From assembly GCA_016935525.1 (NCBI GenBank), contig JAFGQU010000005.1:2190-66189 (forward strand): DNA of 64,000 nt, in the 5' to 3' direction. Below, in pieces: positions 39,641 through 62,980 of the stretch (positions are counted from its first letter, which is position 1; each line of letters begins with the position of its first letter). Under the pieces are notes generated by a model that saw nothing but the letters and a program-made list of their open reading frames with translations, searched no databases and was not told the origin of the DNA. The translations under genes were made by a program, and so were the position numbers. The DNA is from Candidatus Omnitrophota bacterium. GTDB taxonomy: Bacteria > Omnitrophota > Gorgyraeia > Duberdicusellales > 4484-171.

Positions 39641-40153
39641 TTGAAATCCATGACAGACACCCACAGACCCTTACGGGATGAATTGGTCCGTATTGTTTCA
39701 GAGGAGTGTGTGCTCTACGCGCAGCTCCTGGCTTTGATGAAAGCCAAGACGGATATTTTAGTGAACAATGATGTCGGCGCGCTGAATAAAAACACCTCCG
39801 ATGTGAACGAATTCATCGCTCACCTAGAAGATCTGGAAAGTGCGCGTAAAGACGTGATCCTGGCTATTTCGCAAAAAGAGAACATTCCGCTCAAAGAAGT
39901 GACCGTGACCAGGCTTACCACGCATTGGAACGATCCTTCTTTGATCGAATTGCAACAGAAATTGCAGGCAGTGATGCAGGATCTAAAAGATATCAATCAA
40001 CGTAACCAACGGCTGGTAAAGCAGGCCCACGATATGTTTTCTTTTATGAGAGACCTTTTCTATTCGGCATTTGCTCAGGGCCCGGCTACCAGTTATACCA
40101 GCGAAGGTAAAATCGATCAACGGGAAGGAGGCTCCTTTGAAAAAGAAATTTAA
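39641..40153 (+). CDS. Possible FlgN-like export chaperone
   Basis: 170-aa helical protein in the flgJ-...-flgM neighbourhood. Weak similarity to FlgN organisation. Confidence 0.3.
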   Translation: MKSMTDTHRPLRDELVRIVSEECVLYAQLLALMKAKTDILVNNDVGALNKNTSDVNEFIAHLEDLESARKDVILAISQKENIPLKEVTVTRLTTHWNDPSLIELQQKLQAVMQDLKDINQRNQRLVKQAHDMFSFMRDLFYSAFAQGPATSYTSEGKIDQREGGSFEKEI

Positions 40154-40820
40154 AGCTCCTAGAGCGCCGTTTATTATCGGTGACACCGGCGGGCTTAAAA
40201 ATCTGGGCGAAAAAGGGGTAGCGAATAAATGCCGGTTGATGAAATTGGCTAACATCGATGCGGTAAGCGTTGAATTGAAAAGCAAGGAAGACTGGCAGCT
40301 GCTTCCGGCCGCCTATTCGCACGTGAAAAAACATAAGATGTATCTTTTAGGGTCTTTAAAAAACATCCCGGCGCATCGTAAAGAGATCCTTTCGTTAGAC
40401 GGGGTGAAAACGAGTCTTGATTTCTATAAAAACAATACGTTGCTTAACGTGTGCCAGCGGGACAACGTCCCTTTATTTATCTATGTGTCCGAAAAAGATA
40501 AAACAAAAGTCAGGATGATACTTAAGAAGATCGGGAGAAAATACAGTTTCCCTCTGGTTTTTATGGCAAAAGACCCGCATATGGGGCTTTTTTCATTTTT
40601 AAATGAGATACGGGGTAGACATACGCATATGTATATCGGATATAAAGATTCTACCGAAGGGATCGTATCGGCCCTTTTAGCCTTAGCCTGGGGCGGCCAG
40701 TTTATTGAGAAAAAGATCAGGTTAGAAGACATAAGTACTTCTCGCACAGATAGTTATACAATTCCTGAGTTCAGGATCTTCTCGGCGCTTTTAGAAGAAA
40801 GTAAAAAATATCTTCATTAG
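40071..40820 (+). CDS. Hypothetical protein (true start probably downstream of 40071)
   Basis: 249-aa ORF overlapping the previous gene in another frame. No confident motif. Confidence 0.25.
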   Translation: MLRARLPVIPAKVKSINGKEAPLKKKFKAPRAPFIIGDTGGLKNLGEKGVANKCRLMKLANIDAVSVELKSKEDWQLLPAAYSHVKKHKMYLLGSLKNIPAHRKEILSLDGVKTSLDFYKNNTLLNVCQRDNVPLFIYVSEKDKTKVRMILKKIGRKYSFPLVFMAKDPHMGLFSFLNEIRGRHTHMYIGYKDSTEGIVSALLALAWGGQFIEKKIRLEDISTSRTDSYTIPEFRIFSALLEESKKYLH

Positions 40821-40867: not shown

Positions 40868-41206
40868 ATGGATATTTTCAGTTTAGGCAGTATTTTAAAT
40901 GCCTTAAAATTCAATAAAAAGGTAGAATCTCCTCAAAAATCTTCAAAAGTAGAGGAGAATAAAGGGGCCAAAGAGACTTCGGCGTCTTCGGATTCTCAAG
41001 ATACGGTCACTATCTCTCAAGAAGCATTTCTCAAGTCCAGCGTTGAAAACGTCGCCAGCGACGTCCAGAGAGACCAGGAGATCGTAAGAGAAGAAAAAGT
41101 CGCCCAGATCAAAGAGAAGGTCCAAAACGACGAATATGAGGTCTCCTCACAAAAAGTAGCCGATAAACTCATCCGCGGCATTGATATTTACGAAATCTTT
41201 AAATAA
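40868..41206 (+). CDS. flgM: Anti-sigma-28 factor FlgM
   Basis: DTVTISQEAFLKSSVE...VAQIKEKVQNDEYEVSSQKVADKLIRG is a canonical FlgM C-terminal sigma-binding region. Confidence 0.8.
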   Translation: MDIFSLGSILNALKFNKKVESPQKSSKVEENKGAKETSASSDSQDTVTISQEAFLKSSVENVASDVQRDQEIVREEKVAQIKEKVQNDEYEVSSQKVADKLIRGIDIYEIFK

Positions 41207-41327
41207 CCGTAATCCCTCGCCATTTTTGTCCATTTCTTTTCTCACGAACAATAAAAAAACCACAAATTGAGCTGATGTGATGATTATGATAGAATAACAT
41301 TAAAATGGATCATAATACATCTCACAT

Positions 41328-42788
41328 ATGCCCGATTTAAAAGTATTGATCATCAATCCGCCGGTACGGTTTGACGACAAGCCGCGAAATCTCCCTCATG
41401 GCTTGGCAATTCTTGCCAATATTATCCGTAATAAAATGAACATCACCCCGCAATTCTTAGATATCAATGCGTTCCGGTATTCACCGGAGCGATTAAGCGA
41501 AATCCTCAAAACTTCCGATTTTAACGTTGTCCTTATCGGCGGGATCGCCTCAGCCTACCGTCAGATCGTGGAATTGTCCCGGTTGGTCAAAGAGATCGTG
41601 CCGCAGGCAATGATCATCGCCGGCGGATATGTGGTCATGCCGGTCCCGACCCTTTTATTGCAGAATTCTGCGGTAGATATAGTCTGCACCGGAGAAGGGG
41701 AACTTACTATAGTCGAATTATTGGACCGGTTGAGTATACAGGGATTTAATGCCGATATTTCCGATATCGCCGGGGTCTGTTATAAGCCACGAACCGGCGC
41801 ACCGTTTCATTGTACCGGGCCGCGCCGACTTATCGATGATCTTGATGCGACGAGTGCGATGCCGGCATATGACCTGTTGCCGATGGATGTGTATCTTTCT
41901 AATCCGGTCGTGGGAATAGGCCGTGATATCGATATGGTTACTATCCGCGGATGTCCTTATCAATGTTCTTTTTGTTACCAACCCTGGGGGAGGGTCCCGA
42001 GAAGTTATTCGATCGATACTATTGCCGGTACGATCCACACGTTACGCCGGGAATATCGGGTCGATTTCATATCGTTTCAGGATGACGAATTTATGGTTGA
42101 TGAAACCAGAGTAAAAGAGTTTTGTGAGCGGCGTAACCGGCTGTTCCCCGAAGTCCTCTGGTCCTGTACGGGCCGAAGCAATATCATCGCCCGTAACCCC
42201 GATATCGTCAAACTTATGAAACAATCAGGATGTACGCTTATCTCCTGCGGATTCGAATCGGGTTCGCCAAGGATGCTGGAAAGTATGCATAAGATGCAAA
42301 GAATAGATCAAATGGAAGCTACAGTCAAGATCCTCCGGGCCCAGGAGTTGCCGGTTCCGGCATCGTTCATCATCGGTATGCCGGGAGAAGACGAGGCAAG
42401 TTGTCAGGAAACGCTCGATTTTTGTCTACGCAATAATCTGCCGCTTGAGTCACTGATGTTTGCGACTCCTTATCCCGGTACGGAGATTTTTGACTTCGCG
42501 CTTAAGACCGGCCGGGTCGATAAAGACCATATTCATGAATTCATGATGGAACTGGGCGATGCCCGGAAATTCGTGGTCAATCTTACCGACAGTTTTTCCG
42601 ATGAAGGGCTTGTTGCCACACGTACCGAGATGATGGCGATCGCCCGTAAAAATTACGAGAAATTTATCTCGCAAAATGAGATAATGGATAAGATGAAAAA
42701 ACTGTTCGGCCCGCTTTTAGAGCGAGTGCGCCTTGATGAGACCGATTTAGCACACCGGGCAAAACACGGGGGGATGAGCACGTTTTGA
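41328..42788 (+). CDS. B12-binding radical SAM enzyme (class B rSAM, likely methyltransferase-type)
   Basis: N-terminal B12-binding Rossmann-like region. CxxxCxxC motif (CPYQCSFC). 486 aa. First gene of the sugar island. Confidence 0.7.
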   Translation: MPDLKVLIINPPVRFDDKPRNLPHGLAILANIIRNKMNITPQFLDINAFRYSPERLSEILKTSDFNVVLIGGIASAYRQIVELSRLVKEIVPQAMIIAGGYVVMPVPTLLLQNSAVDIVCTGEGELTIVELLDRLSIQGFNADISDIAGVCYKPRTGAPFHCTGPRRLIDDLDATSAMPAYDLLPMDVYLSNPVVGIGRDIDMVTIRGCPYQCSFCYQPWGRVPRSYSIDTIAGTIHTLRREYRVDFISFQDDEFMVDETRVKEFCERRNRLFPEVLWSCTGRSNIIARNPDIVKLMKQSGCTLISCGFESGSPRMLESMHKMQRIDQMEATVKILRAQELPVPASFIIGMPGEDEASCQETLDFCLRNNLPLESLMFATPYPGTEIFDFALKTGRVDKDHIHEFMMELGDARKFVVNLTDSFSDEGLVATRTEMMAIARKNYEKFISQNEIMDKMKKLFGPLLERVRLDETDLAHRAKHGGMSTF

Positions 42789-42790
42789 AG

Positions 42791-42872
42791 GTCACAAGGA
42801 CACACGTCACACGTCACACGTGATGGGGAGAAAATGTTTTTCGTGTGTCTATGTGGCTATGTGTCGTGTGAC
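42791..42872. repeat. GTCACA-rich long palindromic intergenic repeat (copy 1 of 4)
   Basis: gtcacaaggacacacgtcacacgtcacacgtg...cgtgtgtctatgtggctatgtgtcgtgtgac. Its translation produced the spurious N-terminus (MFFVCLCGYVSC) of the next ORF. Confidence 0.7.
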
Positions 42873-42890
42873 TTTAATAAAGGAGTAACA

Positions 42891-43610
42891 TTGAGTATAT
42901 TTTCACTGATCGTCGCCCGTAAAGGGAGTAAAGGATTGCCGAATAAGGTGGTCCGGAAGATCAACGGCAAATATGTATTTCAATATTCGGTAGAATATTC
43001 CTGTTCGTTATCGGATATCATCAAAGAAGAAGTCGTGACTGCGGTATCTTCTGATTGCGAGGAGATTAAAGAATATTGTGCCGGACAGAACGTTGTGTTC
43101 ATCGACCGCCAGGCACATCTCGCTTCCGATCAGGTAAAGATCGAAGAGGTGATCTATGATGCCTACAGTAAGGGAGGGAACCGTTGTGAATATGTCTCTT
43201 TGCTGTACGGAAACATCCCTACCCGGTACCCTGAGGAATTTAAACGGGCATTCGATTTTTTAGAAGCGCATACAGATTATGATGCCGCGCTCAGCATGCA
43301 GAATGTCGAAAAATATAATCCGGCCTGGATGTTTGCGTTACACGAAGAACTATTACCGGAAAAAGACCTGCGAGGATACCGCCGTCAGGACCTGGAACAG
43401 TTCATGATTCATGACGGCCATACCATCCTTTTCCGTGCGGGATATTTTGTCCGGTTCATGGAGAGTCGCCGGGCGGCAAGAAAGATGTATGAACAATTCG
43501 GCGAAAAGATAAAACCGGTATTATGTAACCGGCTGATTATCGATGTGGATACCGAAAGAGATCTTATAGCCGCCGAGGCAATATTGAAATATAACAATGG
43601 AGGGGTATAG
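42891..43610 (+). CDS. CMP-nonulosonic acid synthetase (NeuA/PseF/LegF-like cytidylyltransferase)
   Basis: IVARKGSKGLPNKV is the cytidylyltransferase signature. TTG start at 42891 with RBS aaaggag at 42879-42885. The ORF track starts at 42834, inside the repeat. Confidence 0.7.
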   Translation: MSIFSLIVARKGSKGLPNKVVRKINGKYVFQYSVEYSCSLSDIIKEEVVTAVSSDCEEIKEYCAGQNVVFIDRQAHLASDQVKIEEVIYDAYSKGGNRCEYVSLLYGNIPTRYPEEFKRAFDFLEAHTDYDAALSMQNVEKYNPAWMFALHEELLPEKDLRGYRRQDLEQFMIHDGHTILFRAGYFVRFMESRRAARKMYEQFGEKIKPVLCNRLIIDVDTERDLIAAEAILKYNNGGV

Positions 43611-43700
43611 GAAATATGCTTCGCGAAATACATAGAAATACGCTTACGCGAAATACAATTGTATTTCCATGCATTTCTATTGTATTTCAACTGTATTTCG
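43611..43700. repeat. GAAATAC/GTATTTC word palindrome in intergenic spacer
   Basis: gcgaaatacatagaaatacgcttacgcgaaatacaa / ttgtatttccatgcatttctattgtatttcaactgtatttcg is an imperfect long hairpin. Confidence 0.55.
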
Positions 43701-43704
43701 ATAT

Positions 43705-44757
43705 ATGAGTTTAAAGAAGAGAATACGCATAGGCAATAAAGTGATCGGCGAAGGAAAACCTTGTTTCATCATCGCTGAGGCCGGGGTGAACCATAACGGG
43801 AAGATCCGTCTGGCCAAGCGTCTCATCGATGCGGCAAAGACTGCCGGCGCCGACGCGGTAAAGTTTCAGACGTTTACCGCGGGCGAACTGGTCGGAGAAG
43901 ACATCGCCTTGGCCGGATATCAGAAAAAGAATATGCCCCGGATGAAAAACCAGAAAGAGATGCTGGCAACATTAGAGCTTACCGCGAAAGATTTCGTCAT
44001 GCTCAAGAAATATTGCGATAAAAAAAAGATCGTTTTTCTTTCAACGCCGCATACCGAAGGAGCGCTTGCGATACTCGAGGATATCGTGCCGGCGTATAAG
44101 GTCGCATCCGGCGATATTACCAATATCCCGTTTTTAATAAAAATCGCAAAAAAGAAAAAACCGGTGATCCTTTCGACCGGAATGGCGACGTTAAAAGAGG
44201 TCCAGACCGCAGTCGGTGCCGTAACACGCTATACCGATAAACTGGTGGTACTCCATTGTACGACGAACTATCCCTGTCCGGCAGATGAGGTGAATCTGCG
44301 GGCGATGGATACATTAAAAGAAAAAGGTAAAAACCTTACCGGTTATTCCGATCATACTTCAGGCTATGAGATCTCTCTTGCGGCAGTCGCCCTCGGCGCG
44401 GTCATAATCGAAAAACACCTTACGTTAGACCGGACCTTACCCGGGCCGGACCATCGGGGGAGCCTCACCCCGGGAGAATTTAAAGCTATGATAAAAGCTA
44501 TCCGTATTGTCGAGAGATCGCTGGGCAGTGCTAAGAAAGAACCGACGGTACATGAAAGGAAAATAGCTTCGGTCGTACGTAAAAGTATCGTTGCCCACGT
44601 AGCGATCGATAAAGGAACACAGATCGTTCCGGATATGGTGACTGTCCGTCGTCCGGCCACTGGGATCGCGCCTTATGAGATCAGCCGGGTTATCGGGAAA
44701 AAGGTAAAAAAAAATATCCCAGCAAATACTGTGCTTACGTGGGGAATGCTTATATAA
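43705..44757 (+). CDS. neuB: Nonulosonic acid synthase (NeuB/PseI/LegI family) with C-terminal SAF domain
   Basis: IGEGKPCFIIAEAGVNHNG signature. Start moved to ATG 43705, outside the palindrome. Confidence 0.85.
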   Translation: MSLKKRIRIGNKVIGEGKPCFIIAEAGVNHNGKIRLAKRLIDAAKTAGADAVKFQTFTAGELVGEDIALAGYQKKNMPRMKNQKEMLATLELTAKDFVMLKKYCDKKKIVFLSTPHTEGALAILEDIVPAYKVASGDITNIPFLIKIAKKKKPVILSTGMATLKEVQTAVGAVTRYTDKLVVLHCTTNYPCPADEVNLRAMDTLKEKGKNLTGYSDHTSGYEISLAAVALGAVIIEKHLTLDRTLPGPDHRGSLTPGEFKAMIKAIRIVERSLGSAKKEPTVHERKIASVVRKSIVAHVAIDKGTQIVPDMVTVRRPATGIAPYEISRVIGKKVKKNIPANTVLTWGMLI

Positions 44758-44779
44758 TGAAAAAAGGGAGATATACGGT

Positions 44780-46279
44780 ATGATCTCAAAATCGCCTTAT
44801 GGCGATACGTTTAAATATGAAATCGATGATACGTTCGAACGCGAAAAAATCGACGCGTTCCTGAAAAAAAGGAAAACCGTCGTCGTCCAGGGGTTAGGGT
44901 TTGTCGGCTCGGCCATGGTCGCGGCGCTTGCGTTAAGCCGCGCTCAGGACGGTTCTCTGCGGTATAACGTGATCGGGGTCGATCTGCCGGATGAAAAAAA
45001 TTTCTGGAAGATCGCCCGGATAAATAACGGAGTCCCTCCGGTACGTTCGTTTGACAAAAAGATGGACGAAGCGTATGCGCAGGCATCTCAAAATAAAAAT
45101 GTCCTTGCTACATATAGTCCCTATGCTTACAGTAAAGCCGATGTGGTGGTCATCGATATCCATCTCGATATCAAAAAAAAGGAACTGGGCGCGCCATATG
45201 AATACGAATTTTCTTACGATGGGTTTAAAACAGCGATTGAAACCGTCGCTCAACATATCGTTGAGGATACTCTGGTGATCATAGAGACTACCGTTCCCCC
45301 GGGAACGACCGAACAGGTAGTGTATCCGCTGTGTAAAGAAGTATTCTCCCGCCGCGGGTTGGATATCAATAAATTATATCTGGCTCATTCCGGAGAACGG
45401 GTCATGCCGGGGACGAACTATCTTGATTCGATCGTGAATTTTTATCGGGTTTATTCCGGTATCAATAGCGAATCAAAAATCCGGGCGCGGGAATTTTTTG
45501 AATCGTTTGTGAATACCCGGGATTTTCCTATTACTGAGATGCATTCACCGACGGCGTCGGAGATGGTGAAGGTACTGGAAAACTCCTATCGTGCCGTCAA
45601 CATCGCGTTTATCCAGGAGTGGACCGAATTTGCCGAGGAGGCCGATGTGAATTTATTTGAAGTGGTCAAGACTATCCGTAAGCGTCCTACTCATCAGAAC
45701 ATCATGTGGCCGGGATTCGGGGTGGGGGGGTATTGTCTCACTAAAGACGCGTTATTGGCCGATTGGGCGTACCGGAATCTGTTCAATAAAGAAGAAAATC
45801 TCGGTATGTCGCTGGCAGCGATCGGAATAAACGATCTTATGCCGGAATTCACTTTTGAATTATTACAACGGGAGTTGCTCGACGACCTTAACGGAAAATA
45901 TATCACTATTTTAGGCGTTTCTTATCTTAACGATGTCGCCGATACCCGTTCGTCGCCTACCCAGGTTTTTTATGAGATGTGCGAAAACCGCGGGGGCCGT
46001 CTCACCGTTCATGATCCGCTGGTGAGTTTCTGGCCGGAAAAACAATTAGAAATAGATACCGACATAAAAAATCTAGCCGATAAAAAGCATGATATTGCCG
46101 TATTTGCCGTACGTCACCATGAGTACGTAACCCTTTCGGCTAAAGAAATCCGGGAAATCCTTCCCGGAGTAAGGATCATTATCGACGCCAATAACGTATT
46201 GACTGATGAGACAGCGCGCGAACTTGCTCAAGCCGAGATCATCGTAACCGGCGTCGGTAAAGGACATTGGAACCTGTAG
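44780..46279 (+). CDS. Nucleotide-sugar dehydrogenase (UDP-glucose/GDP-mannose dehydrogenase family)
   Basis: N-terminal Rossmann VVVQGLGFVGSAMVAALA. 499 aa. Confidence 0.6.
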   Translation: MISKSPYGDTFKYEIDDTFEREKIDAFLKKRKTVVVQGLGFVGSAMVAALALSRAQDGSLRYNVIGVDLPDEKNFWKIARINNGVPPVRSFDKKMDEAYAQASQNKNVLATYSPYAYSKADVVVIDIHLDIKKKELGAPYEYEFSYDGFKTAIETVAQHIVEDTLVIIETTVPPGTTEQVVYPLCKEVFSRRGLDINKLYLAHSGERVMPGTNYLDSIVNFYRVYSGINSESKIRAREFFESFVNTRDFPITEMHSPTASEMVKVLENSYRAVNIAFIQEWTEFAEEADVNLFEVVKTIRKRPTHQNIMWPGFGVGGYCLTKDALLADWAYRNLFNKEENLGMSLAAIGINDLMPEFTFELLQRELLDDLNGKYITILGVSYLNDVADTRSSPTQVFYEMCENRGGRLTVHDPLVSFWPEKQLEIDTDIKNLADKKHDIAVFAVRHHEYVTLSAKEIREILPGVRIIIDANNVLTDETARELAQAEIIVTGVGKGHWNL

Positions 46280-46287
46280 AAAGGATG

Positions 46288-46373
46288 GTCACAAGGTCAC
46301 ATAGACACATAGTCACACGTAATAGAATATCAATTTGTCTTGACGTGTGACCTGTGACGTGTGACTGTGTGAC
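46288..46373. repeat. GTCACA-rich long palindromic intergenic repeat (copy 2 of 4)
   Basis: gtcacaaggtcacatagacacatagtcacacgt-[AT loop]-gacgtgtgacctgtgacgtgtgactgtgtgac. Confidence 0.75.
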
Positions 46374-46385
46374 TTTTAAAAAAGT

Positions 46386-47378
46386 ATGAGTAAGATATTG
46401 ATTACCGGAGGAGCAGGGTTTATCGGATATTTTGTTGCCGAAAAACTGTCCCAAAATCCCGAGAATCAAATCACGGTACTGGATAATCTGTCCCGCGGCT
46501 GTAACGACAAAGAATTCGAAACTCTTTGCGCAAAATCCAACGTTACGTTTGTCCAGGGAGATCTGACTTCTCAGGCTACGATTGATGATATCAGCCGGGA
46601 TTATGAATATATATACCATCTTGCCGCTCTGGTCGGGGTGAAAAACGTAAAAGACGCGCCGGACCGGGTGCTTTCGGTAAATATCCGTTCGACATTGAAC
46701 CTTTTTGAAGCTGCCCGCAGTTTTTACCGGTTACGAAAGATATTCTTTTCATCGACCAGTGAGGTCTATGCCGGTACGTTCATGCATTTTGCGGTAGGAG
46801 TACCGACATCGGAATCGGTTCCTCTGGCCGTGAGCGATATTACTTCGGCCCGGTCTACGTACGCGATAAGTAAGATGTGCGGAGAATCAATATGTTTTTC
46901 TTACGGTGAAAAGTACCAGATCCCTTTTGTCATCGGCCGGTATCATAACGTGTATGGCCCGCGGATGGGTTGGGCGCATGTGATCCCGGAGATGTATGCC
47001 AAGATCACCAACAATGCCGAACTTACCGTGACTTCTCCCGGCCATAGCCGGGCGTTCTGTTATATTGACGATGCCGTAGAATTTACGGTCCGGCTTACCG
47101 AACATTACCAGACTGAAGGAGAAATATTCCATATCGGCAATCCCACCGAAGAGATCAGGATAAAAGACCTGGTCAAACTTATCGCCCGGGTGATGAATCG
47201 TCAGGTGTTTGTAGAGACCGGAAGAGATATGCCGGGTTCTCCGCATCGGCGTTGTCCGGATACCGCAAAAGCCGAGCGGCGTACCGGATATCGGGCGAAC
47301 ATCGCGTTAGAAGAAGGGGTGAAGAAAACATATCAATGGTATCAATCACGGCTCGATTCTTATGAGGAAGGCCGCTAA
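46386..47378 (+). CDS. NAD-dependent sugar epimerase/4,6-dehydratase (SDR, LegB/PseB-like)
   Basis: ILITGGAGFIGYFVAEKL glycine-rich NAD motif. 330 aa. Confidence 0.7.
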   Translation: MSKILITGGAGFIGYFVAEKLSQNPENQITVLDNLSRGCNDKEFETLCAKSNVTFVQGDLTSQATIDDISRDYEYIYHLAALVGVKNVKDAPDRVLSVNIRSTLNLFEAARSFYRLRKIFFSSTSEVYAGTFMHFAVGVPTSESVPLAVSDITSARSTYAISKMCGESICFSYGEKYQIPFVIGRYHNVYGPRMGWAHVIPEMYAKITNNAELTVTSPGHSRAFCYIDDAVEFTVRLTEHYQTEGEIFHIGNPTEEIRIKDLVKLIARVMNRQVFVETGRDMPGSPHRRCPDTAKAERRTGYRANIALEEGVKKTYQWYQSRLDSYEEGR

Positions 47379-47383
47379 ATGCA

Positions 47384-47405
47384 GTCGTTCGTCGTTGGTC
47401 GTTCG
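47384..47405. repeat. Reverse-complement copy of the CGAACGA heptamer repeat
   Basis: gtcgttcgtcgttggtcgttcg directly after the stop codon. Followed by AGAGACTAG word repeats at 47448-47470. Confidence 0.5.
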
Positions 47406-47473
47406 TATTTAGTGGGAAAATATAATACAAAACAGAAACTATATACCAGAGACTAGAGACCGGAGACTAGAAT

Positions 47474-48571
47474 ATGGAACTGGACGCTCCTAATATTGGC
47501 CAATTAGAGAAAGAATATCTCAACAAGGTGCTTGAGAGTAATTTTATTTCGACGTTCGGCCCTTATGTCAACGATTTTGAAGAAAAATTTGCCACCCGGT
47601 TACACGCGACATCTGCGGTATCGACGCAAAGCGGGACTGCCGCGTTACATGTCACGCTTTGCGAATTAGGGATAAAAGCCTCAGATGAAGTGATCGTTCC
47701 CGCGCTCACTTTTGTCGCGACAGCTAATCCCGTAGTCTATACCGGGGCGCACCCGGTATTTGTCGATGTCGACCTTCATACCTGGAATATCCTGCCGGAG
47801 GAGATCGAAGAGGCGATCACGCCGCGTACTCGCGCGATCATTCCCGTGCATTTTTACGGGAACCCCTGCGCGATGGATAAGATCATGAATATTGCCCAAA
47901 AACATGATCTTTATGTGATCGAGGATGCGACTGAAAGCCTGGGCGCGTCTTTCGGCGGGCAGTATACCGGTACGTTCGGTGATTTCGGATGTTTTAGTTT
48001 TAACGGGAATAAGATAATTACTACCGGTGGCGGGGGGATGGTCCTGGGGAAAGACCATACACAGTTAGAACATATCCGGTTTCTGGTAAACCAGGCCCGT
48101 GACGGTTCGCGGGGATTCTTTCATCCGGAGATAGGATTTAATTATCGGATGACCAATCTTGAAGCCGGGTTAGGGCTTGCCCAGCTTACCAGGCTGGACG
48201 ATTTTTTAGAGAAAAAGAAAGGATTCAATACACTGTACCGTAAAGAACTTACCCCTATCGCTGAAATAGGGTTTCAGGCGGAATACCCCTGCGCTGAGAG
48301 TTCCTGGTGGTTTACCGGTATTACCGTCAAAGAAAAGATGGATGCCGCGACGTTGCAGCAGAAGTTAAAAGAGAAAAATATTCCGTCACGGCGGGTATTC
48401 ATGCCGCTGGTAGAATTTCCTCCGTATAAAGAGCATAAGAAAAGAGAATATACACACAGTTATGAAATCTATAATCGCGGGTTATGCCTGCCGTCTTCCA
48501 CGCTCAATACGTCTGACGATATATATGAGGTATGTAAGGCCATAAAGGAAATTTTTGGGAAGAAATACTAA
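47474..48571 (+). CDS. DegT/DnrJ/EryC1-family sugar aminotransferase (PseC/LegC-like)
   Basis: 365 aa. N-terminal fold motifs and GGGGMV. Lysine region typical of the family. Confidence 0.75.
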   Translation: MELDAPNIGQLEKEYLNKVLESNFISTFGPYVNDFEEKFATRLHATSAVSTQSGTAALHVTLCELGIKASDEVIVPALTFVATANPVVYTGAHPVFVDVDLHTWNILPEEIEEAITPRTRAIIPVHFYGNPCAMDKIMNIAQKHDLYVIEDATESLGASFGGQYTGTFGDFGCFSFNGNKIITTGGGGMVLGKDHTQLEHIRFLVNQARDGSRGFFHPEIGFNYRMTNLEAGLGLAQLTRLDDFLEKKKGFNTLYRKELTPIAEIGFQAEYPCAESSWWFTGITVKEKMDAATLQQKLKEKNIPSRRVFMPLVEFPPYKEHKKREYTHSYEIYNRGLCLPSSTLNTSDDIYEVCKAIKEIFGKKY

Positions 48572-48578
48572 TGGGAGA

Positions 48579-48663
48579 GTCATAAGGTCACAAAGACACA
48601 TAGTCACACGTAAGAAATGTTTAATGTATTCAGACGTGTGTCGTGTGACATGTGACGTGTGAC
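48579..48663. repeat. GTCACA-rich long palindromic intergenic repeat (copy 3 of 4)
   Basis: gtcataaggtcacaaagacacatagtcacacgt-[loop]-gacgtgtgtcgtgtgacatgtgacgtgtgac. Confidence 0.75.
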
Positions 48664-48682
48664 TTTCCAGCGGAGCTGGATT

Positions 48683-49327
48683 ATGAAAGAAGAAATTATA
48701 TTAATCGGCGGCGGTGGACATTGTAAATCCTGTATTGACGTGATCGAAAAAGGAGAAATATTCTCGATCGCCGGAATAGTCGATGTGAACGAAAAGGTGA
48801 ATCTCGATGTGTTGGGATATAAGATCTTCGCGACCGACGAAGAATTGCCCGGACTGGTCAAAGAATACGATTTCTTTCTGGTCACGCTCGGCCAGATCAA
48901 AATCGCCGAACCGCGGAAAAAAATATTTTCGTTTTTAAAAGGATTAGGCGCGAACCTCCCGGTGATACTCTCTCCCCGCTCATCGGTCGCCGCCTCATCC
49001 AGTATCGACGAGGGTACGATAGTGATGCATGATGTGATCGTGAATTCGCAAACCTCGATCGGAAAAAACTGCATCCTGAACAACAAATCCTGTATCGAAC
49101 ATGACGTCCATATCGGTGATCATTGCCATATTTCTACGGCAGCGATCATCAACGGCAACTGTACCGTTGATGAGGGGGCTTTTATCGGCAGCAACAGCGT
49201 GATCAATAATGGAGTGTATATCGGTAAGCATGTGGTGATCGGCGCCGGGAGCGTGGTGATCCATTCGATCGAAGAGGCTGGTATCTATGCCGGCAACCCG
49301 GCAGAAAAGATAGGGGATATTACTTGA
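48683..49327 (+). CDS. Hexapeptide-repeat sugar N-acetyltransferase (PglD/NeuD/LegH-like)
   Basis: N-terminal ILIGGGGHCKSCIDVIE Rossmann-like part plus left-handed beta-helix hexapeptide repeats. Start moved to ATG 48683, outside the repeat. Confidence 0.7.
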   Translation: MKEEIILIGGGGHCKSCIDVIEKGEIFSIAGIVDVNEKVNLDVLGYKIFATDEELPGLVKEYDFFLVTLGQIKIAEPRKKIFSFLKGLGANLPVILSPRSSVAASSSIDEGTIVMHDVIVNSQTSIGKNCILNNKSCIEHDVHIGDHCHISTAAIINGNCTVDEGAFIGSNSVINNGVYIGKHVVIGAGSVVIHSIEEAGIYAGNPAEKIGDIT

Positions 49328-49338
49328 TCTTAAGTAAA

Positions 49339-49405
49339 GTCACACGTCACAAAGTCACATAGACACACGTTGAAGAATCAATGCGTGTGTCGTGTGACAT
49401 GTGAC
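49339..49405. repeat. GTCACA-rich long palindromic intergenic repeat (copy 4 of 4)
   Basis: gtcacacgtcacaaagtcacatagacacacgt-[loop]-gcgtgtgtcgtgtgacatgtgac. Confidence 0.75.
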
Positions 49406-49458
49406 TCACGAATAGACGTTCTGTGATGATTGGTTTAGTGGCAGAATAAGGATAAAGA

Positions 49459-50625
49459 ATGGGAAACAAGCGTAAGGTTTGTATAGTCAGCGGGTCCCGC
49501 GCCGATTACGATCTTTTATATCCGCTATTGTGCGAATTAAAAGATTCATCGAAGGTGGAGGTGCAGATCATTGCGACGGGGATGCATCTTGAAAAAAAAT
49601 TCGGTGCGACCTGGCGCAATATTGAAGCCGATAGATTTAGGATCGATGCCCGCGTGCCGATCCAGTTAACCGGTGATACCCCGCAGCATATCAGTTCATC
49701 GGTAGCCAGAGCGATTCAGTTGTTAGCGGCAGTCTATAAGAAAATCGAACCTGATATTATCGTACTTTTAGGAGATCGGTTTGAAATCTTTGCCGGTGCG
49801 GTCGGTGCGCTTATCTGTGGTATTCCCGTTGCCCATCTTCACGGGGGAGAGGCGACATTTGGGGCGTTTGATGAGGCTCTTCGCCATTCGATTACCAAGA
49901 TGAGTCATCTCCATTTTACGGCAACAGAAAAATACCGCATGCGTGTGATCCAATTGGGCGAGAATCCGGAACGTGTATTTAATGTCGGCGCGTTAGGTAT
50001 CGATAATATCAGACGGGAGACGTTTTTGACTAAAGAAGAACTTGAGAGCAACCTGCAGATCAAGTTTAAACCGCAGAATCTGCTCATTACGTTTCATCCG
50101 GTGACCTTAGAGAAAAATACGAGCGGCGGACAATGTGAAGAACTACTTACGGCGCTTGATGAGTTAGAAAATACCCAGCTGATATTTACCAAAGCTAATG
50201 CCGATACCTATGGGAAAATTATTAATACTGCTCTTGAGGCATATGTGAAAAAACATAAAGAAAAGGCTGTTCTTTTTGATTGCTTAGGCAGAAGACGATA
50301 TTTGTCGTTAATGCAGTATATTGATGCGGTTGTGGGTAATTCTTCCTCGGGGATCATTGAGGCATCAAGTTTTCATATTGGTACAATCAATATCGGAGAC
50401 CGGCAAAAGGGAAGAATCCGCCCCAGTAGTGTCATCGACTGCGAGCCGACAACCTCCGGCATCCGTGATGGATTAAAGAGGCTGTATAGCCAGGAATTCC
50501 AGGGGAGCCTAAAGGATGTCACGAACCCTTACGGAGAAGGTGAAGCGGCAATAAAGATAAAAGAAGTATTAGAAACATACCCGTTGGAGGGAATATTAAA
50601 GAAAGAATTTTGGGACATTAAATGA
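49459..50625 (+). CDS. neuC: UDP-N-acetylglucosamine 2-epimerase (hydrolysing), NeuC/LegG-like
   Basis: KRKVCIVSGSRADYDLLYPL N-terminus is typical of NeuC-type hydrolysing 2-epimerases. 388 aa. Confidence 0.75.
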   Translation: MGNKRKVCIVSGSRADYDLLYPLLCELKDSSKVEVQIIATGMHLEKKFGATWRNIEADRFRIDARVPIQLTGDTPQHISSSVARAIQLLAAVYKKIEPDIIVLLGDRFEIFAGAVGALICGIPVAHLHGGEATFGAFDEALRHSITKMSHLHFTATEKYRMRVIQLGENPERVFNVGALGIDNIRRETFLTKEELESNLQIKFKPQNLLITFHPVTLEKNTSGGQCEELLTALDELENTQLIFTKANADTYGKIINTALEAYVKKHKEKAVLFDCLGRRRYLSLMQYIDAVVGNSSSGIIEASSFHIGTINIGDRQKGRIRPSSVIDCEPTTSGIRDGLKRLYSQEFQGSLKDVTNPYGEGEAAIKIKEVLETYPLEGILKKEFWDIK

Positions 50626-50657
50626 GACTTGGACTTTTAGAGCGTGAGCGAATAAAA

Positions 50658-50974
50658 GTCCGTAGTCGAATTGAACCCTTGACATTTTTCGATGGGCATT
50701 ATTTATTACGTTTACATTTTAGAATGTGCTGATGGTACTAAGTATTATGGTCATACAGATGATTTAAGAAAACGTATTGTTTCCCACTCGAAAGGGTATG
50801 TCTATTCAACAAAAAATAAAAGGCCGTTGCAGTTGATTTATTATGAAGAACACGATTCACGTTCAGCGGCGTTTAAAAGAGAGATGCAGTTTAAAAATGG
50901 CAAGACACGAAAAAAAAACCATAGAGGAAATGATAGGTTCATTTTCTCAAGAAAAATGTCAAGGGTTCAATTCG
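50658..50974. mobile_element. Compact GIY-YIG element bounded by perfect 23-bp inverted repeats
   Basis: Left IR cgaattgaacccttgacattttt (50666-50688). Right IR aaaaatgtcaagggttcaattcg (50953-50974). Inserted between the neuC-like gene and the CBS-nucleotidyltransferase gene. Confidence 0.6.
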
Positions 50975-51015
50975 TGCCTGTGACTTATGTTCACTCGATA
51001 AAGCTCGTTCCATAA
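50692..51015 (+). CDS. GIY-YIG nuclease family protein
   Basis: YYVYILECADGTKYYGHTDDLRKRIVSH...KREMQFKNGKTRKKN is a canonical GIY-YIG/URI motif. The 3' end of the ORF reads through the right IR. Confidence 0.75.
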   Translation: MGIIYYVYILECADGTKYYGHTDDLRKRIVSHSKGYVYSTKNKRPLQLIYYEEHDSRSAAFKREMQFKNGKTRKKNHRGNDRFIFSRKMSRVQFVPVTYVHSIKLVP

Positions 51016-51041
51016 GTCACGCACTCATTGAAGGAGCTATC

Positions 51042-52115
51042 ATGGAAAAAAAAGATCTATTTATTCTTCCGAATGAAACAATAAAAGAAGCGTTGAAAAA
51101 GCTGGACAAAACCGCCGAGAAAGCGTTACTGGTCGTCGATGAACACCAAAAGCTTCTGGGGACGCTTTCTGACGGCGACGTACGCCGCTGTTTATTGAAA
51201 GGGGAAGGGTTAGACGGAGATATTTCCGCGGTATTTAACCGTTCCCCGCGGGTGTTGCATAACGATACCTATACATTAGCCCAGGTTCGCGATGTCCTTT
51301 TGACTCACAAGATCCAGCTTTTGCCTCTGATTGATAGTCAAAACCGGGTAGTCGATTTTATTACCTGGAACCAGGTGTTTAAGAAAGAAAGAATAAGTCC
51401 GGCGGCGGAAAAAAAATTGGAGATACCGGTAGTGATCATGGCCGGAGGTAAAGGAACGCGGCTTGACCCGTTTACCCGTATTTTACCTAAACCACTTATT
51501 CCTATCGGTGACCGGCCGGTGATCGAGGTTATCATCGATGAGTTCAGGAAACAGGGAGTACGTAAATTTTATCTTATCCTTAATTACAAAGCCGAGATGA
51601 TCGAATCATATTTTGCCCATATCGATAAAGATTATGAGATCGAATATGTGAAAGAACCGGATTTTTACGGAACCGCGGGAAGTTTAAAATTGATTCAGGA
51701 CCGGATTGCCGATCTTTTTATCGTCTCGAATTGTGATGTGATGGTCCGGGCTCACCTTCAGGAAGTCATCGATCTCCATAATGCCCAGAAAGCTTTATTT
51801 ACCGTGCTCTCTTCGATCCAGCACCATAAGATCCCTTACGGGGTCATTGAGTTTAAAGAGCAGGGTGAAGTCGTCGATATCGTGGAAAAACCTGAATATA
51901 CCTTTGCGATAAATACCGGGGTCTATATCCTGAACCGCGAAGTTCTTAAGACCATTCCGGCGCATTCCCGGTTCGATATGACCGATCTGATGCAGGCTCT
52001 TTTCAAAGAAAAGAAAAAAGTGCTCACCTATCCGGTCAACGAGAGTGATTACATCGATATCGGCCAATGGGAAGAGTATAAACAAGTTATCGATAAATTC
52101 CAGATATTTCCTTAA
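51042..52115 (+). CDS. CBS-domain sugar-phosphate nucleotidyltransferase (PtmE-like)
   Basis: N-terminal CBS pair. C-terminal nucleotidyltransferase (VVIMAGGKGTRLDPFTRILPKPLIPIG). Confidence 0.7.
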   Translation: MEKKDLFILPNETIKEALKKLDKTAEKALLVVDEHQKLLGTLSDGDVRRCLLKGEGLDGDISAVFNRSPRVLHNDTYTLAQVRDVLLTHKIQLLPLIDSQNRVVDFITWNQVFKKERISPAAEKKLEIPVVIMAGGKGTRLDPFTRILPKPLIPIGDRPVIEVIIDEFRKQGVRKFYLILNYKAEMIESYFAHIDKDYEIEYVKEPDFYGTAGSLKLIQDRIADLFIVSNCDVMVRAHLQEVIDLHNAQKALFTVLSSIQHHKIPYGVIEFKEQGEVVDIVEKPEYTFAINTGVYILNREVLKTIPAHSRFDMTDLMQALFKEKKKVLTYPVNESDYIDIGQWEEYKQVIDKFQIFP

Positions 52116-52217
52116 TTTATCCTTTAAAACCACTGCTCCCCGGATTTTCTCATGATTTTACTGTAAGCGCTTACAGTAAAAATGCCCTTTATTTTCTGCC
52201 TATTTTCGTCTTAACGT

Positions 52218-52244
52218 TAAAGTTTTCTGGCTGATGACCGATAA
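52218..52244 (+). promoter_or_regulatory. Sigma-28 promoter upstream of the flgK operon
   Basis: TAAAGTTT (52218-52225), 11-nt spacer, ACCGATAA (52237-52244). ATG at 52263. Confidence 0.75.
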
Positions 52245-52262: not shown

Positions 52263-52496
52263 ATGAGAGGGGTTATGGAAAGAAGAACCGCAACAAAAAT
52301 AATGACCCGGAGAGAAAAGGCGCGGATCGCTTATTTCCCTCACGCGTATAATTACATCATGAAAGAAGAGATCCTCAAAGGATTTCATTCGGTAAATAGA
52401 GAAAAGGTAGAAAGTATTAAAGAATTATTAAAAAATAATCTCCATATTGCGGAGAAGGCATCGGAAGTTGCCGAAAAAATAATCAAGGGGGTATAA
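52263..52496 (+). CDS. Small hypothetical protein upstream of flgK
   Basis: 77 aa, basic. First ORF after the sigma-28 promoter. Confidence 0.3.
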   Translation: MRGVMERRTATKIMTRREKARIAYFPHAYNYIMKEEILKGFHSVNREKVESIKELLKNNLHIAEKASEVAEKIIKGV

Positions 52497-52499: not shown

Positions 52500-53966
52500 A
52501 TGGCTGTATCACCATTTTTCGGAATTGAAATAGGATTAAGAGCGCTTCAGGCCCAGAAATTGGCGATGAACGTATTGTCTCATAATGTCGCCAATGCCAA
52601 TACTCCCGGATATTCCCGGCAACAAGTCAATCTGACCGCAAGCGATCCTTATACCGTCCCCGGTTTCAACCGGGGAATAGGAGCCGGACAGGTCGGATCC
52701 GGCGTTGAAATCGTAAGTATTACCCGGGCGAGAGATAACAGCCTTACCCGTCAGGTCCGTGATAATGTGAACCTTTTTCAGGAATATGAGACTCGGGAAA
52801 GTTTTTATCAGAGGATCGAAGCGGTATTCAACGAACCGGGCGCGACGGGACTGAGCCAGTTGATGAACGATTTTTTTAACGCGTGGCGGGAACTGGCAAC
52901 GACTCCGGAAAGTAACGCGGCCCGAGCCCTGGTAAAACAGAAAGGTCAGTCTTTATCCGATTATTTTAACCGTATCGATAACGACCTGACCGCGATGCAA
53001 AAAGATGTCGATAATAATATCCGTGCGGTATCAACCGATATCAATACGCTTCTGCGCCAGTTAGGCGAGACCAACGTACTCCTGCGGGGAGTCGTAGCTC
53101 AAGGCGATAACCCTAATGATCTGTTAGACCGGAGGGATTCTCTGCTTGAAGAGCTTTCCGGATATGTGGATATCCAGGTCGTGGAACAACCCGATCTTAC
53201 CGTCAATGTCTATGTGAGCGGCCGGAATCTAGTGCAAGCCGATATCGTCCGGGAGATCGTCGTACAAAATAATGCCAGCAACAATTTTTATGCCCAGTTA
53301 AAGGTCGAAGGAGAAGAGACCGGAGCCGATCTGGTAGTCAACGGCGGAGAACTGAAAGCGTTGTTGGATACACGTGACGATACGACTATCGGTATCGAAG
53401 GATACCTTAACAGTATAGACCAATTAGCCTATAATCTGGCTGCGGGAATAAATACTATCCATGGTGCCGGGTACGGATTAGACGGGGTAAACGGCCGGGA
53501 TTTTTTTATCGATGTGACGGCGTTTACGGTCGCGGGTACCGCCGGCCGGCTTTCACTTTCAACGAACATCACCGATCCCACAAACGGTTTGCGTAATGTC
53601 GCTGCCTGTGGTCTACTTGATCCGGTCACCGGTCTGCCGATGGTTCCCGGAGACGGCAGTAATGCGTTAGCGATCGCTCAGTTACAGGATGATACCGCGA
53701 TTATGAGCGGCCTTACTGTTCACGATTTTTATAATAATACGATTTCGGGATTAGGGATCTATTCGCAAGAAGAGACTAAAAATAGAGAAAACCAGGAATT
53801 TTTATTAAATCAATTACGTAATCTGGAAGATAGTACTTCCGGGGTCAATCTCGATGAAGAAGCCGCCAAGATGATCACGTTTGAAAACGCCTATAACGCG
53901 GCGGCTCAAGTGATCCGTATCATGGATGAGACGATCCAGACGTTGATCGAATTATTAGGAAGCTGA
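52500..53966 (+). CDS. flgK: Flagellar hook-associated protein 1, FlgK
   Basis: LRALQAQKLAMNVLSHNVANANTPGYSRQQ N-terminus. 488 aa. Followed by flgL. Confidence 0.85.
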   Translation: MAVSPFFGIEIGLRALQAQKLAMNVLSHNVANANTPGYSRQQVNLTASDPYTVPGFNRGIGAGQVGSGVEIVSITRARDNSLTRQVRDNVNLFQEYETRESFYQRIEAVFNEPGATGLSQLMNDFFNAWRELATTPESNAARALVKQKGQSLSDYFNRIDNDLTAMQKDVDNNIRAVSTDINTLLRQLGETNVLLRGVVAQGDNPNDLLDRRDSLLEELSGYVDIQVVEQPDLTVNVYVSGRNLVQADIVREIVVQNNASNNFYAQLKVEGEETGADLVVNGGELKALLDTRDDTTIGIEGYLNSIDQLAYNLAAGINTIHGAGYGLDGVNGRDFFIDVTAFTVAGTAGRLSLSTNITDPTNGLRNVAACGLLDPVTGLPMVPGDGSNALAIAQLQDDTAIMSGLTVHDFYNNTISGLGIYSQEETKNRENQEFLLNQLRNLEDSTSGVNLDEEAAKMITFENAYNAAAQVIRIMDETIQTLIELLGS

Positions 53967-55552: not shown

Positions 55553-55580
55553 TAAAGTTTCTTTGAAAAGTGGTCGATAA
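55553..55580 (+). promoter_or_regulatory. Sigma-28 promoter upstream of csrA-flagellin
   Basis: TAAAGTTT (55553-55560), 12-nt spacer, GTCGATAA (55573-55580). csrA ATG at 55605. Confidence 0.7.
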
Positions 55581-58829: not shown

Positions 58830-59048
58830 TTGATGTTAGAAGAAAAGACTGATCTTCAAGAAGAGATCCTCAAAGCGTTACTACAGAAGAACGCTACCTA
58901 CGCCCATCCGTTAAATTCAGAAAAGATCTCACAGATCCTTAATATAAATTCGTCATACGCCCGGTTTCAGATCGGCCGGTTGAGAGAATATATCGGTGTA
59001 CGCCGGGGAAAACACGGGGGATATTATCTTAAAGAAAGAAAACGATGA
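58830..59048 (+). CDS. Small hypothetical basic protein
   Basis: 72 aa. Within the fliD-fliS block. Confidence 0.25.
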   Translation: MMLEEKTDLQEEILKALLQKNATYAHPLNSEKISQILNINSSYARFQIGRLREYIGVRRGKHGGYYLKERKR

Positions 59049-62819: not shown

Positions 62820-62980
62820 TCACGATAAAGGCAAACCCGCTGAAAGGCGGGGACGCAAAGCCTTGGGCCTAAAGGAAAAATCCTATGGTTGCCAGGTTAC
62901 CGAATGAACCTCAATATACGTTGAGGGGGAATCGAGTAATTATAACCCGCGCTATAGGAATATAGCGCGGGTTTTTTTTG
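62820..62980 (+). ncRNA. c-di-GMP-I (GEMM) riboswitch with intrinsic-terminator expression platform
   Basis: Aptamer GGCAAACC-cgct-GAAAG-gcgg-GGACGCAAAGCC-ttg-GGCCTAAA...GGTTGCCAGGTTACCGAATG closely parallels the Vc2 GEMM aptamer (GGCAAACC...GACGCAAAGCC...GGCCUAAA...GGUUACCGAUGG). The terminator is acccgcgctatagg-aa-tatagcgcggg plus T8 (62946-62979). Confidence 0.7.

Follow-up and report, generated by a model that had tools for sequence, protein, structure and literature searches.

We analysed a 64-kb stretch of DNA from a Candidatus Omnitrophota bacterium (64,000 nucleotides of contig JAFGQU010000005.1, hereafter the window), in which a gene island at positions 41328-52115 lies between the flagellar genes flgM and flgK. 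The island is confirmed: it consists of ten co-directional open reading frames (ORFs) on the + strand, all at the coordinates listed below, with flgM upstream and flgK downstream, and the E-values, down to 1e-139, together with the shared orientation of ten genes place it far beyond chance. We read it, with a probability of roughly 0.6, as a flagellin glycosylation island within the late (sigma-28) portion of a flagellar supercluster of Omnitrophota, whose enzymes would build an eight-carbon ulosonic acid and include a radical S-adenosylmethionine (SAM) step. The sugar is probably new, because the radical SAM step and the pairing of a dehydrogenase with a putative decarboxylase are both uncharacterised in such pathways. 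A first-pass annotation, made from the letters alone, had described a flagellin glycosylation island at this place, starting with a class-B radical SAM gene and served by a Maf glycosyltransferase next to fliS; its ORFs and domain assignments agree with ours, although its gene list omitted the 107-aa GIY-YIG ORF within the cluster. The ten genes are as follows.

41328-42788, + strand: class-B (B12-binding) radical SAM enzyme; B12-binding domain 39.5 bits, Radical_SAM domain 77 bits
42834-43610, + strand: divergent CMP-ulosonic acid synthetase of the CTP_transf_3 family; PF02348, 40.5 bits versus 22.6
43669-44757, + strand: NeuB-type ulosonic acid synthase (phosphoenolpyruvate condensation) with SAF domain; TIGR03569, 419.9 bits, cutoff 399.65
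44780-46279, + strand: nucleoside diphosphate (NDP)-HexNAc 6-dehydrogenase (WecC/Cap5O-like), first half of the cassette; all three domains, PDB 4r16 at 143 bits and 3g79 at 139 bits
46386-47378, + strand: extended short-chain dehydrogenase/reductase (SDR), predicted NDP-HexNAc-uronate C4-oxidase/C6-decarboxylase of the Pcryo_0617/UXS/ArnA type; PDB 8vr2 nearest, not LegB
47474-48571, + strand: LegC-like pyridoxal phosphate aminotransferase, predicted to act on a 4-keto sugar; PF01041, E 4.5e-108; TIGR04181, 401.4 bits, cutoff 420
48659-49327, + strand: PglD/NeuD-type N-acetyltransferase, PglD_N plus hexapeptide domains; TIGR03570, 194.1 bits, cutoff 160.8
49459-50625, + strand: NeuC-type hydrolysing 2-epimerase; TIGR03568, 464.2 bits, cutoff 235.9
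50692-51015, + strand: small GIY-YIG protein, 107 aa, between the NeuC and PtmE-like genes; PF01541, E 3e-14
51042-52115, + strand: PtmE-like protein with CBS and sugar-1-phosphate nucleotidyltransferase domains, predicted NDP-GlcNAc entry enzyme, assigned by domain architecture

The enzymes are identified at the level of families, and from these we infer the substrates and products of a route to a CMP-activated 5,7-diacetamido ulosonic (sialic-acid-like) sugar, which the Maf transferase would move onto flagellin. The PtmE-like enzyme, whose nearest solved relatives include mannose-1-phosphate guanylyltransferases and HddC, would make NDP-N-acetylglucosamine (NDP-GlcNAc), and the 6-dehydrogenase would oxidise this to a uronic acid. 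The SDR would then oxidise C4 with loss of C6 as CO2, following the logic of Pcryo_0617, ArnA and UXS, to give a 4-keto-pentose, on which the LegC-like aminotransferase and the PglD-like acetyltransferase would install the second acetamido group. NeuC would release and 2-epimerise the free sugar, and NeuB would condense it with phosphoenolpyruvate (PEP) to an eight-carbon 5,7-diacetamido-3,5,7-trideoxy-octulosonic acid, canonical legionaminic acid (Leg) being the nine-carbon tetradeoxy form. The B12-type radical SAM enzyme would act on the free acid or on the CMP-sugar, alongside the adjacent CMP-transferase, with C-methylation of an unactivated or carbinol carbon as its likeliest reaction. 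Among the enzymes shared with Leg synthesis, the acetyltransferase, the NeuC-type epimerase and the NeuB-type synthase all score above their cutoffs, and the LegC-like aminotransferase falls slightly below its own. The CMP-transferase is more distant from known enzymes: it reaches 55.8 bits with the PseF model (cutoff 205.7), its only PDB relative is the CMP-Neu5Ac synthetase 1eyr (E 2.4e-7), and a tblastn search found no second CTP_transf_3 gene in the window.

The radical SAM enzyme and its place in the pathway

The radical SAM core (PF04055) carries the CxxxCxxC motif as C209, C213 and C216, which are invariant in 73 sequences, and the N-terminal Rossmann-type domain exceeds the gathering score of 32.1 for the B12-binding family PF02310. 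An AlphaFold model (pLDDT, the predicted local distance difference test, 93) has the class-B fold, with MgmA as its best and AprD4 as its second structural match, followed by OxsB, TsrM, CysS and TokK; sequence identity to any solved class-B member is at most about 23%, and the best PDB sequence match is AprD4. A profile of the N-terminal domain recovers the cobalamin-binding domains of TokK (E 1.7e-4), CysS, MgmA and OxsB but misses AprD4, a sugar diol dehydratase that binds no cobalamin (PMC12931638). Because this domain resembles those that bind cobalamin and not that of AprD4, the enzyme is likely to depend on cobalamin. Three further invariant cysteines (C266, C280 and C302), considered as an auxiliary cluster, align with AprD4 too and were left uninterpreted. 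No named class-B equivalog could be assigned: all 23 NCBIfam matches, among them HpnJ, BchE, PhpK, MgmA-type, HpnR, AprD4 and BzaD, fall far below their cutoffs, the best being HpnJ (148.3 bits, cutoff 577.6) and BchE (148.2 bits, cutoff 481.35).

An NCBI protein from a metagenome-assembled genome of Candidatus Omnitrophica has the same sequence as the window protein (100% identity). We scored 8,000 candidates and obtained 881 relatives at E<=1e-10, of which the best 120 are 51-100% identical to the window enzyme and come from Omnitrophota, Altiarchaeales, Dehalococcoidia, Bathyarchaeia, Planctomycetia, Scalindua, Parcubacteria and Nitrospinota. When 1.84 billion representatives were searched exhaustively, the family appeared as one full-length 50% cluster at 561 bits, and the next full-length match lay at 318 bits and 38% identity. 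By these comparisons the family is uncharacterised and unusually tight and isolated, with 50-75% identity among members from both Bacteria and Archaea.

Genomic context was compared between 20 non-redundant orthologous loci and 65 paralogue loci. The radical SAM gene has a CTP_transf_3 gene within 500 bp at 18 of the 20 orthologous loci versus 5 of the 65 paralogue loci; at one of the two orthologous loci without such a neighbour, the contig ends 69 bp past the radical SAM gene. NeuB is encoded within 10 kb in 15/20 and 19/65 loci, respectively, and a PtmE-like gene is found within the same distance at 13 of the 20 orthologous loci. Only three of the loci are flagellar, namely the window, the collinear locus L006, and L018, where the radical SAM gene follows FliM/FliN; the remaining ones are surface-polysaccharide clusters, the archaeal loci included. 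Protein fusions point in the same direction. P0123, the nearest full-length relative beyond the family, joins B12-type radical SAM, NeuB and SAF domains in one continuous, clean ORF of 847 aa and keeps the C-terminal HRxxHG motif of the family, P0149 is a fusion of a Maf N-terminal domain (Maf_N) with a radical SAM domain, and in other relatives the fusion partner is a GT9, GT1/GT4 or Glyphos_transf domain. Taken together, the adjacency to CTP_transf_3 and NeuB genes and the fusions with NeuB and the Maf N-terminal domain mark the protein as a late-stage enzyme of ulosonic-acid biosynthesis, working beside the synthase and the CMP-transferase. Since only three loci are flagellar and the rest are surface-polysaccharide clusters, it is not specific to flagella. 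The earlier assignment of the radical SAM gene to the sugar pathway is thereby borne out.

These contexts also bear on the idea that the protein is no sugar enzyme and either modifies flagellin or another flagellar protein post-translationally, in the way that MgmA and Mmp10 methylate MCR, or is an unrelated passenger. Such a role might be suggested by the closest structure, since MgmA is a protein (glutamine) C-methylase, and by the three orthologues in flagellar loci. Most orthologous loci, archaeal ones included, have no flagellar genes and do have NeuB, NeuC and CTP_transf_3, and the sister clade is fused to NeuB; we regard a role outside sugar synthesis as very improbable.

As to the reaction, C-methylation of the free or CMP-activated acid appears the most likely option, at about even odds by analogy, because most characterised class-B enzymes are C-methylases, although several have non-methyl chemistry (PMC12931638), and because there are precedents in GenK, which methylates a sugar carbon (PMC12931638), and in Fom3, a B12-type radical SAM enzyme that methylates the CMP-linked substrate 2-HEP-CMP, itself made by a cytidylyltransferase (PMC8992657). 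The first-pass statement that this family typically methylates stands for class B in general and not for the window enzyme, whose nearest curated models, HpnJ and BchE, are non-methylases matched far below cutoff; for this enzyme we treat C-methylation as a hypothesis. A non-methyl radical reaction on the ulosonic acid, with the pathway otherwise as we propose, is a lesser but real possibility, whether as epimerisation, dehydration/deamination, ring contraction or carbon-skeleton rearrangement, with cobalamin as an electron sink or absent. Besides the two curated non-methylases, of which HpnJ has a sugar-derived moiety as substrate, it could appeal to AprD4, a sugar 1,2-diol dehydratase that is both the best PDB sequence match and the second structural match, and to the class-B members with other chemistry in the 2026 review (PMC12931638). 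It has to contend with the prevalence of methylases among characterised members, with an N-terminal domain that resembles the cobalamin-binding domains of methylases and fails to recover AprD4, and with a C-methylase, MgmA, as the best structural match. A 5,7-diacetamido acid, moreover, offers no vicinal diol for AprD4-type chemistry. Structure was set aside as a means of separating methylases from non-methylases, MgmA (methylase) and AprD4 (dehydratase) being about equally close.

Other B12-type radical SAM families, too, recur in nonulosonic acid (NulO) and flagellin islands. One family of 462-aa proteins, with more than 4,500 relatives, occurs in a Maf/Leg island of Syntrophorhabdus and in a Magnetococcales locus with a Maf-like protein, and a further paralogue belongs to a flagellin island of the pseudaminic acid (Pse) type in Desulfosudis oleivorans (L042). 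That island, at 2625-19014 of the locus and from a cultured organism, also encodes flagellin, a MerR-fused PseB-like SDR, a DegT aminotransferase, a methyltransferase, a HisF-like protein, a PseG-PseH fusion, a NeuB homologue and a tetratricopeptide repeat protein with a weak GT9 match, and it could serve as an experimental model. Several large relatives (P0197, P0211, P0212 and P0247; 2,000-2,600 aa) match the radical SAM query in two to four stretches and are apparent multi-radical SAM fusions; P0127 contains two B12-type radical SAM units, and P0167 fuses a B12-type unit to a SPASM radical SAM domain.

The dehydrogenase-SDR cassette and the sugar backbone

The SDR had been labelled a dehydratase in the first pass, which gave no role to the dehydrogenase, and this label is probably wrong, judged from its relatives. 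Against the LegB model TIGR04180 it scores 141 bits (cutoff 475), and the corresponding SDR of locus L005 fails too, whereas the SDRs at the same operon position in L012 and L013 pass with 513 and 521 bits. Its closest solved relative by sequence (155.7 bits), by family profile (182 bits) and by fold is 8vr2, the Pcryo_0617 oxidoreductase/decarboxylase of Psychrobacter cryohalolentis, and Foldseek places human UXS, a UDP-glucuronate decarboxylase, directly after it. In the ranking of solved relatives, 8vr2 is followed by a UDP-glucuronate 4-epimerase in second place and by human UXS, and the 4,6-dehydratases trail by 55 bits or more. The features of a decarboxylase-type SDR are present, namely the catalytic residues of the T-S-E and YxxxK motifs and, towards the C-terminus, a conserved Arg, and S123, T124, S125, E126, Y159, K163, R288 and R289 are invariant. 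Scores of 86.8 bits with curated UXS (cutoff 294) and 77.8 bits with ArnA (cutoff 777) mark the protein as a relative of these enzymes and not as an equivalog.

A 6-dehydrogenase of 486-533 aa lies directly upstream of the SDR in 6/6 loci (the window, L005, L006, L088, L089 and L090). The two genes co-evolve, often with overlapping stop and start codons, and the dehydrogenase partners are 57-75% identical to that of the window in L006 and L088-L090 and 46% identical in L005. In four NulO operons the pair stands directly before the aminotransferase, where sister operons have LegB: L012 and L013 have the order LegB-LegC-PglD-NeuB-NeuC-PtmE-radical SAM-CMP-transferase, and L005 has the dehydrogenase and the SDR in place of LegB and is otherwise the same. 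Directly before the cassette, L005 also carries a 49-aa LegB relic (2045-2194), in which 33 of 45 residues (73%, E 1e-24) are identical to the N-terminus of the L012 LegB; it has the look of a scar left when one gene replaced another. Between L005 and the LegB-type loci, the remaining enzymes are 56-70% identical. On the simplest reading, the dehydrogenase-SDR cassette would take the place of LegB. Because an aminotransferase follows the pair, and because of the LegB relic in L005, we infer by analogy that the SDR would decarboxylate its substrate to a 4-keto-pentose, with NeuB assumed to accept a pentose. The product is then probably other than canonical Leg, given that the SDR relatives are uronate decarboxylases and epimerases and that the pairing with a dehydrogenase is constant. 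Of the earlier proposal of a legionaminic-type product, the overall logic stands, with NeuC, NeuB, PglD, DegT and PtmE-like enzymes and a Maf transferase agreeing in domain content; the product itself is predicted to differ in having an eight-carbon backbone.

Several observations weigh against the reading of the island as a source of an eight-carbon acid with a radical SAM step. All orthologues of the radical SAM enzyme come from metagenome-assembled genomes, one of them (L008) lies outside any sugar cluster, and the nearest curated models and best PDB match are the non-methylating enzymes described above. Among NCBIfam models, RmlB (150 bits) and LegB (141 bits) outscore UXS (87) and ArnA (78) for the SDR, and a T-S-E versus T-D-E motif, tried as a discriminator between decarboxylases and dehydratases, was dropped because true LegBs share S-T-S-E. 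In L089 and L090 no aminotransferase follows the pair, so that its product may also be a sugar that is reduced or epimerised. The NeuBs of the dehydrogenase-SDR loci form no clade apart from those of LegB loci. The 64-kb window contains no second LegB/PseB-like gene, but a LegB could be encoded elsewhere in the genome.

Two alternatives draw on these points. In the first, the island would follow the canonical GDP-GlcNAc route to CMP-legionaminic acid, with the SDR as a divergent LegB, an unrelated dehydrogenase and a radical SAM enzyme that C-methylates Leg. RmlB and LegB are indeed the top NCBIfam matches of the SDR, the motif S-T-S-E-V-Y is common to it and true LegBs, and all other Leg-type enzymes are present. 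We nevertheless consider this route unlikely: the LegB score is far under the cutoff and sister loci have true LegBs at the same position, uronic acids are the substrates of its best solved relatives, the dehydrogenase is coupled to the SDR at every one of the six loci, a LegB relic precedes the cassette in L005, and the dehydrogenase would be left without a role or a transferase. In the second, the pair would make a separate sugar nucleotide for the flagellin glycan, such as NDP-XylNAc or NDP-GalNAcA, while the aminotransferase received its substrate from a LegB or PseB encoded elsewhere. Here the pairs of L089 and L090, which belong to ordinary polysaccharide clusters, and the rank of UDP-glucuronate 4-epimerase among solved relatives speak in favour. 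Apart from Maf, however, neither the island nor the window encodes a further glycosyltransferase, the window has no LegB or PseB, the pair holds the place of LegB before the aminotransferase in four NulO operons, and L005 retains a truncated LegB; a separate sugar therefore seems quite improbable.

At another locus with the cassette, L088 (Ca. Gorgyraea atricola), the region upstream of the dehydrogenase-SDR-type NulO operon (1-8470) encodes two further B12-type radical SAM enzymes, FkbH, a carrier protein, a phosphopantetheinyl transferase, a MaoC dehydratase and a methyltransferase. These genes may form a module that builds an unusual acyl substituent.

Flagellar setting and regulation

On the 5' side the island is preceded by genes for FlgI, an FlgJ-like protein, FlgN, an ORF without assignment and FlgM, and on the 3' side it is followed by FlgK, FlgL, FliW, CsrA, a 276-aa flagellin, FliD, Maf and FliS. 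Beyond these genes, the 64-kb window forms a single flagellar supercluster, with FliF, FliG, FliI, FliK, FlgE, MotA, FlhB, FlhA and FlhF, and it encodes three PilZ proteins and a FliA-type sigma factor, presumed to regulate late flagellar promoters. The features that bear on the setting of the island are these.

30301-31020, + strand: FliA-type (sigma-28 family) sigma factor; Sigma70 regions 2, 3 and 4; downstream of FlhA and FlhF
40152-40820 (start uncertain), + strand: ORF between flgN and flgM without Pfam match, with a degenerate NeuB-like segment
40823-40849, + strand: sigma-28-type promoter consensus TAAAGTTT-N11-GCCGATAA, a perfect match, upstream of flgM
40868-41206, + strand: flgM, anti-sigma-28 factor; PF04316, E 2.1e-12
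52156-52181, + strand: 11-bp terminator-like hairpin after the last island gene; fold about -10 kcal/mol
52218-52244, + strand: second sigma-28-type promoter, near-consensus TAAAGTTT-N11-ACCGATAA, upstream of a 77-aa ORF and flgK
52500-53966: FlgK
55553-55580, + strand: third sigma-28-type promoter TAAAGTTT-N12-GTCGATAA, one mismatch, upstream of csrA-flagellin
55920-56750, + strand: short flagellin, 276 aa, presumed glycan acceptor; Flagellin_N and Flagellin_C domains
59307-61178, + strand: Maf-type flagellin glycosyltransferase; MptE-like (E 2.7e-41) and Maf_flag10_N domains; overlaps fliS
61151-61588: fliS, overlapped by the Maf gene

The Maf gene has the MptE-like core and the Maf N-terminal domain and stands beside flagellin, fliS and a NulO pathway, as expected of a Maf system; with 108 bits against the PseD model (cutoff 670) it is not a PseD equivalog. 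The flagellin is the presumed O-glycosylated acceptor, the sole indication being several Ser/Thr residues in its short central segment.

The sigma-28 consensus has two matches in the window, with 0.04 expected, and the site upstream of flgM is kept in L006 as TAAAGTTT-N11-GTCGATAA. For the island itself we found no sigma-28 promoter, and a sigma-70-like site at 41267-41295, considered as an island promoter, was rejected as weak and no better than chance. In the 121-nt spacer between flgM and the radical SAM gene, neither a significant structure (z = 0.54) nor a terminator was found, and a riboswitch search gave no Rfam match inside the island. Since the island has no sigma-28 site of its own and no terminator follows flgM, it is plausible that it is co-transcribed with flgM as a late flagellar operon, by read-through from the flgM promoter.

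The small GIY-YIG ORF of the island is absent at the collinear locus L006 and for this reason is probably a passenger insertion, outside the pathway. It is 42% identical to an ORF in the Scalindua locus L027, which also has NeuB and a B12-type radical SAM paralogue. The ORF at 40152-40820 gave faint matches to NeuB/PseI (E about 0.009) and, in BLASTP against the window NeuB, 13 of 30 identical residues (E 3e-4); its segment GYKDSTEG...IEKKIRLE aligns with GYSDHTSG...IEKHLTLD of NeuB with apparent loss of the metal-binding His, and its C-terminus is kept in L006. Three further small unannotated ORFs lie downstream of the island: a 77-aa ORF without Pfam match between the sigma-28 promoter and flgK (52263-52496) and, between fliD and Maf, a 72-aa winged-helix (Rrf2/HrcA-like) ORF (58830-59048) and a 90-aa one (59045-59317).

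The flagellar cluster carries, at its far end, a c-di-GMP-I riboswitch (RF01051, 88.9 bits), which occupies 62820-62904 on the + strand and is followed by a terminator-like hairpin at about 62946-62981. Because the cluster has this riboswitch as well as the three PilZ/YcgR-like proteins, encoded at 27724-29902, control of motility by c-di-GMP is likely. Downstream of the riboswitch, the apparently non-coding region 63000-63620 contains at least six copies of an approximately 18-nt motif, TTTTCCTTACCYAAGCC, four of them direct (63359, 63434, 63527 and 63593) and two in reverse complement (63001-63021 and 63200-63220).

Significance and relation to known systems

Nonulosonic acids, such as sialic, legionaminic and pseudaminic acids, take part in flagellar assembly, phage recognition and immune evasion, and their known diversity lies in stereochemistry and in N- and O-substituents. 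A radical SAM step would bring carbon-skeleton chemistry to these sugars, and a swap of LegB for a decarboxylase would bring variation in chain length. Tentatively, we suggest that the dehydrogenase-SDR cassette shortens the backbone to eight carbons ('nor-legionaminic') and that a cobalamin-dependent radical SAM enzyme C-methylates the free or CMP-activated acid, so that in LegB-containing clusters the same step would yield the orphan C10 acids; as two interchangeable modules they would together give a hitherto undescribed family of sialic-acid-like sugars, a combination that is possible rather than probable. That the radical SAM enzyme of dehydrogenase-SDR clusters restores the lost C9 methyl is kept as a possibility only, because radical SAM proteins that are 70% identical occur in L005 (dehydrogenase-SDR) and in L011/L012 (LegB), and these would argue for the same reaction on both backbones. 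If the proposal is true, nonulosonic-acid biosynthesis would have its first radical SAM enzyme, and uncultured Bacteria and Archaea a widespread means of varying their surface sugars. The two modules occur widely in lineages with hardly any cultured members, among them Omnitrophota, DPANN and other Archaea, bacteria of the candidate phyla radiation, anammox bacteria and Desulfobacterota. They would account for some of the ulosonic-acid masses that environmental surveys leave unassigned and would offer candidate genes for orphan C10 acids. The radical SAM-CMP-transferase pair and the dehydrogenase-SDR cassette are both compact and portable enough to be reconstituted in other hosts and used in glyco-engineering.

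The closest known system in overall logic is the CMP-legionaminic acid pathway of Campylobacter jejuni (PtmE, LegB, LegC, LegH, LegG, LegI and LegF) with its Maf proteins (reference gene list in bioRxiv 10.64898/2026.04.20.719630), with which the island has most enzyme families in common: a CBS-nucleotidyltransferase, a DegT aminotransferase, a PglD-type acetyltransferase, NeuC, NeuB, a CMP-transferase, and Maf by the flagellar genes. Unlike that pathway, the island has no LegB and in its place carries a 6-dehydrogenase and a decarboxylase-like SDR, adds a B12-type radical SAM enzyme, has a highly divergent CMP-transferase, and is predicted to form a backbone of eight carbons before any radical SAM step. 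The first half of the proposed route resembles two oxidative-decarboxylation routes to 4-amino pentoses, that of Ugd, ArnA and ArnB to UDP-L-Ara4N and that of Pcryo_0617 with an aminotransferase and an N-acetyltransferase. The order of 6-dehydrogenase, SDR C4-oxidase/decarboxylase, DegT aminotransferase and N-acyltransferase is common to all of them, but the island cassette would feed NeuC, NeuB and the CMP-transferase, so that the amino-pentose is predicted to be extended with PEP instead of serving as a direct donor. We know of no other combination of an amino-pentose cassette with a NeuC/NeuB/CMP-transferase module.

The radical SAM enzyme has its domain architecture and fold in common with GenK and GenD1 (aminoglycoside C-methylation), Fom3, MgmA/QCMT and AprD4. 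A 2026 list of characterised class-B enzymes contains no nonulosonic-acid enzyme (PMC12931638), and a full-text search, with subscription journals outside its coverage, returned no paper linking radical SAM enzymes to nonulosonic acids. The alphaproteobacterial loci L062 and L064 have a different B12-type radical SAM family, 28-29% identical to the window enzyme, and no Magnetospirillum was among the 120 listed matches of the search for a second such family. Two mass-spectrometry studies describe CMP-activated ulosonic acids of the Leg/Pse type with a C10 backbone in Magnetospirillum gryphiswaldense and assign no gene to them (PMC8157484; bioRxiv 10.64898/2026.04.20.719630). These acids have one extra backbone carbon, and a C-methylating radical SAM enzyme in a LegB-type cluster would give exactly that.

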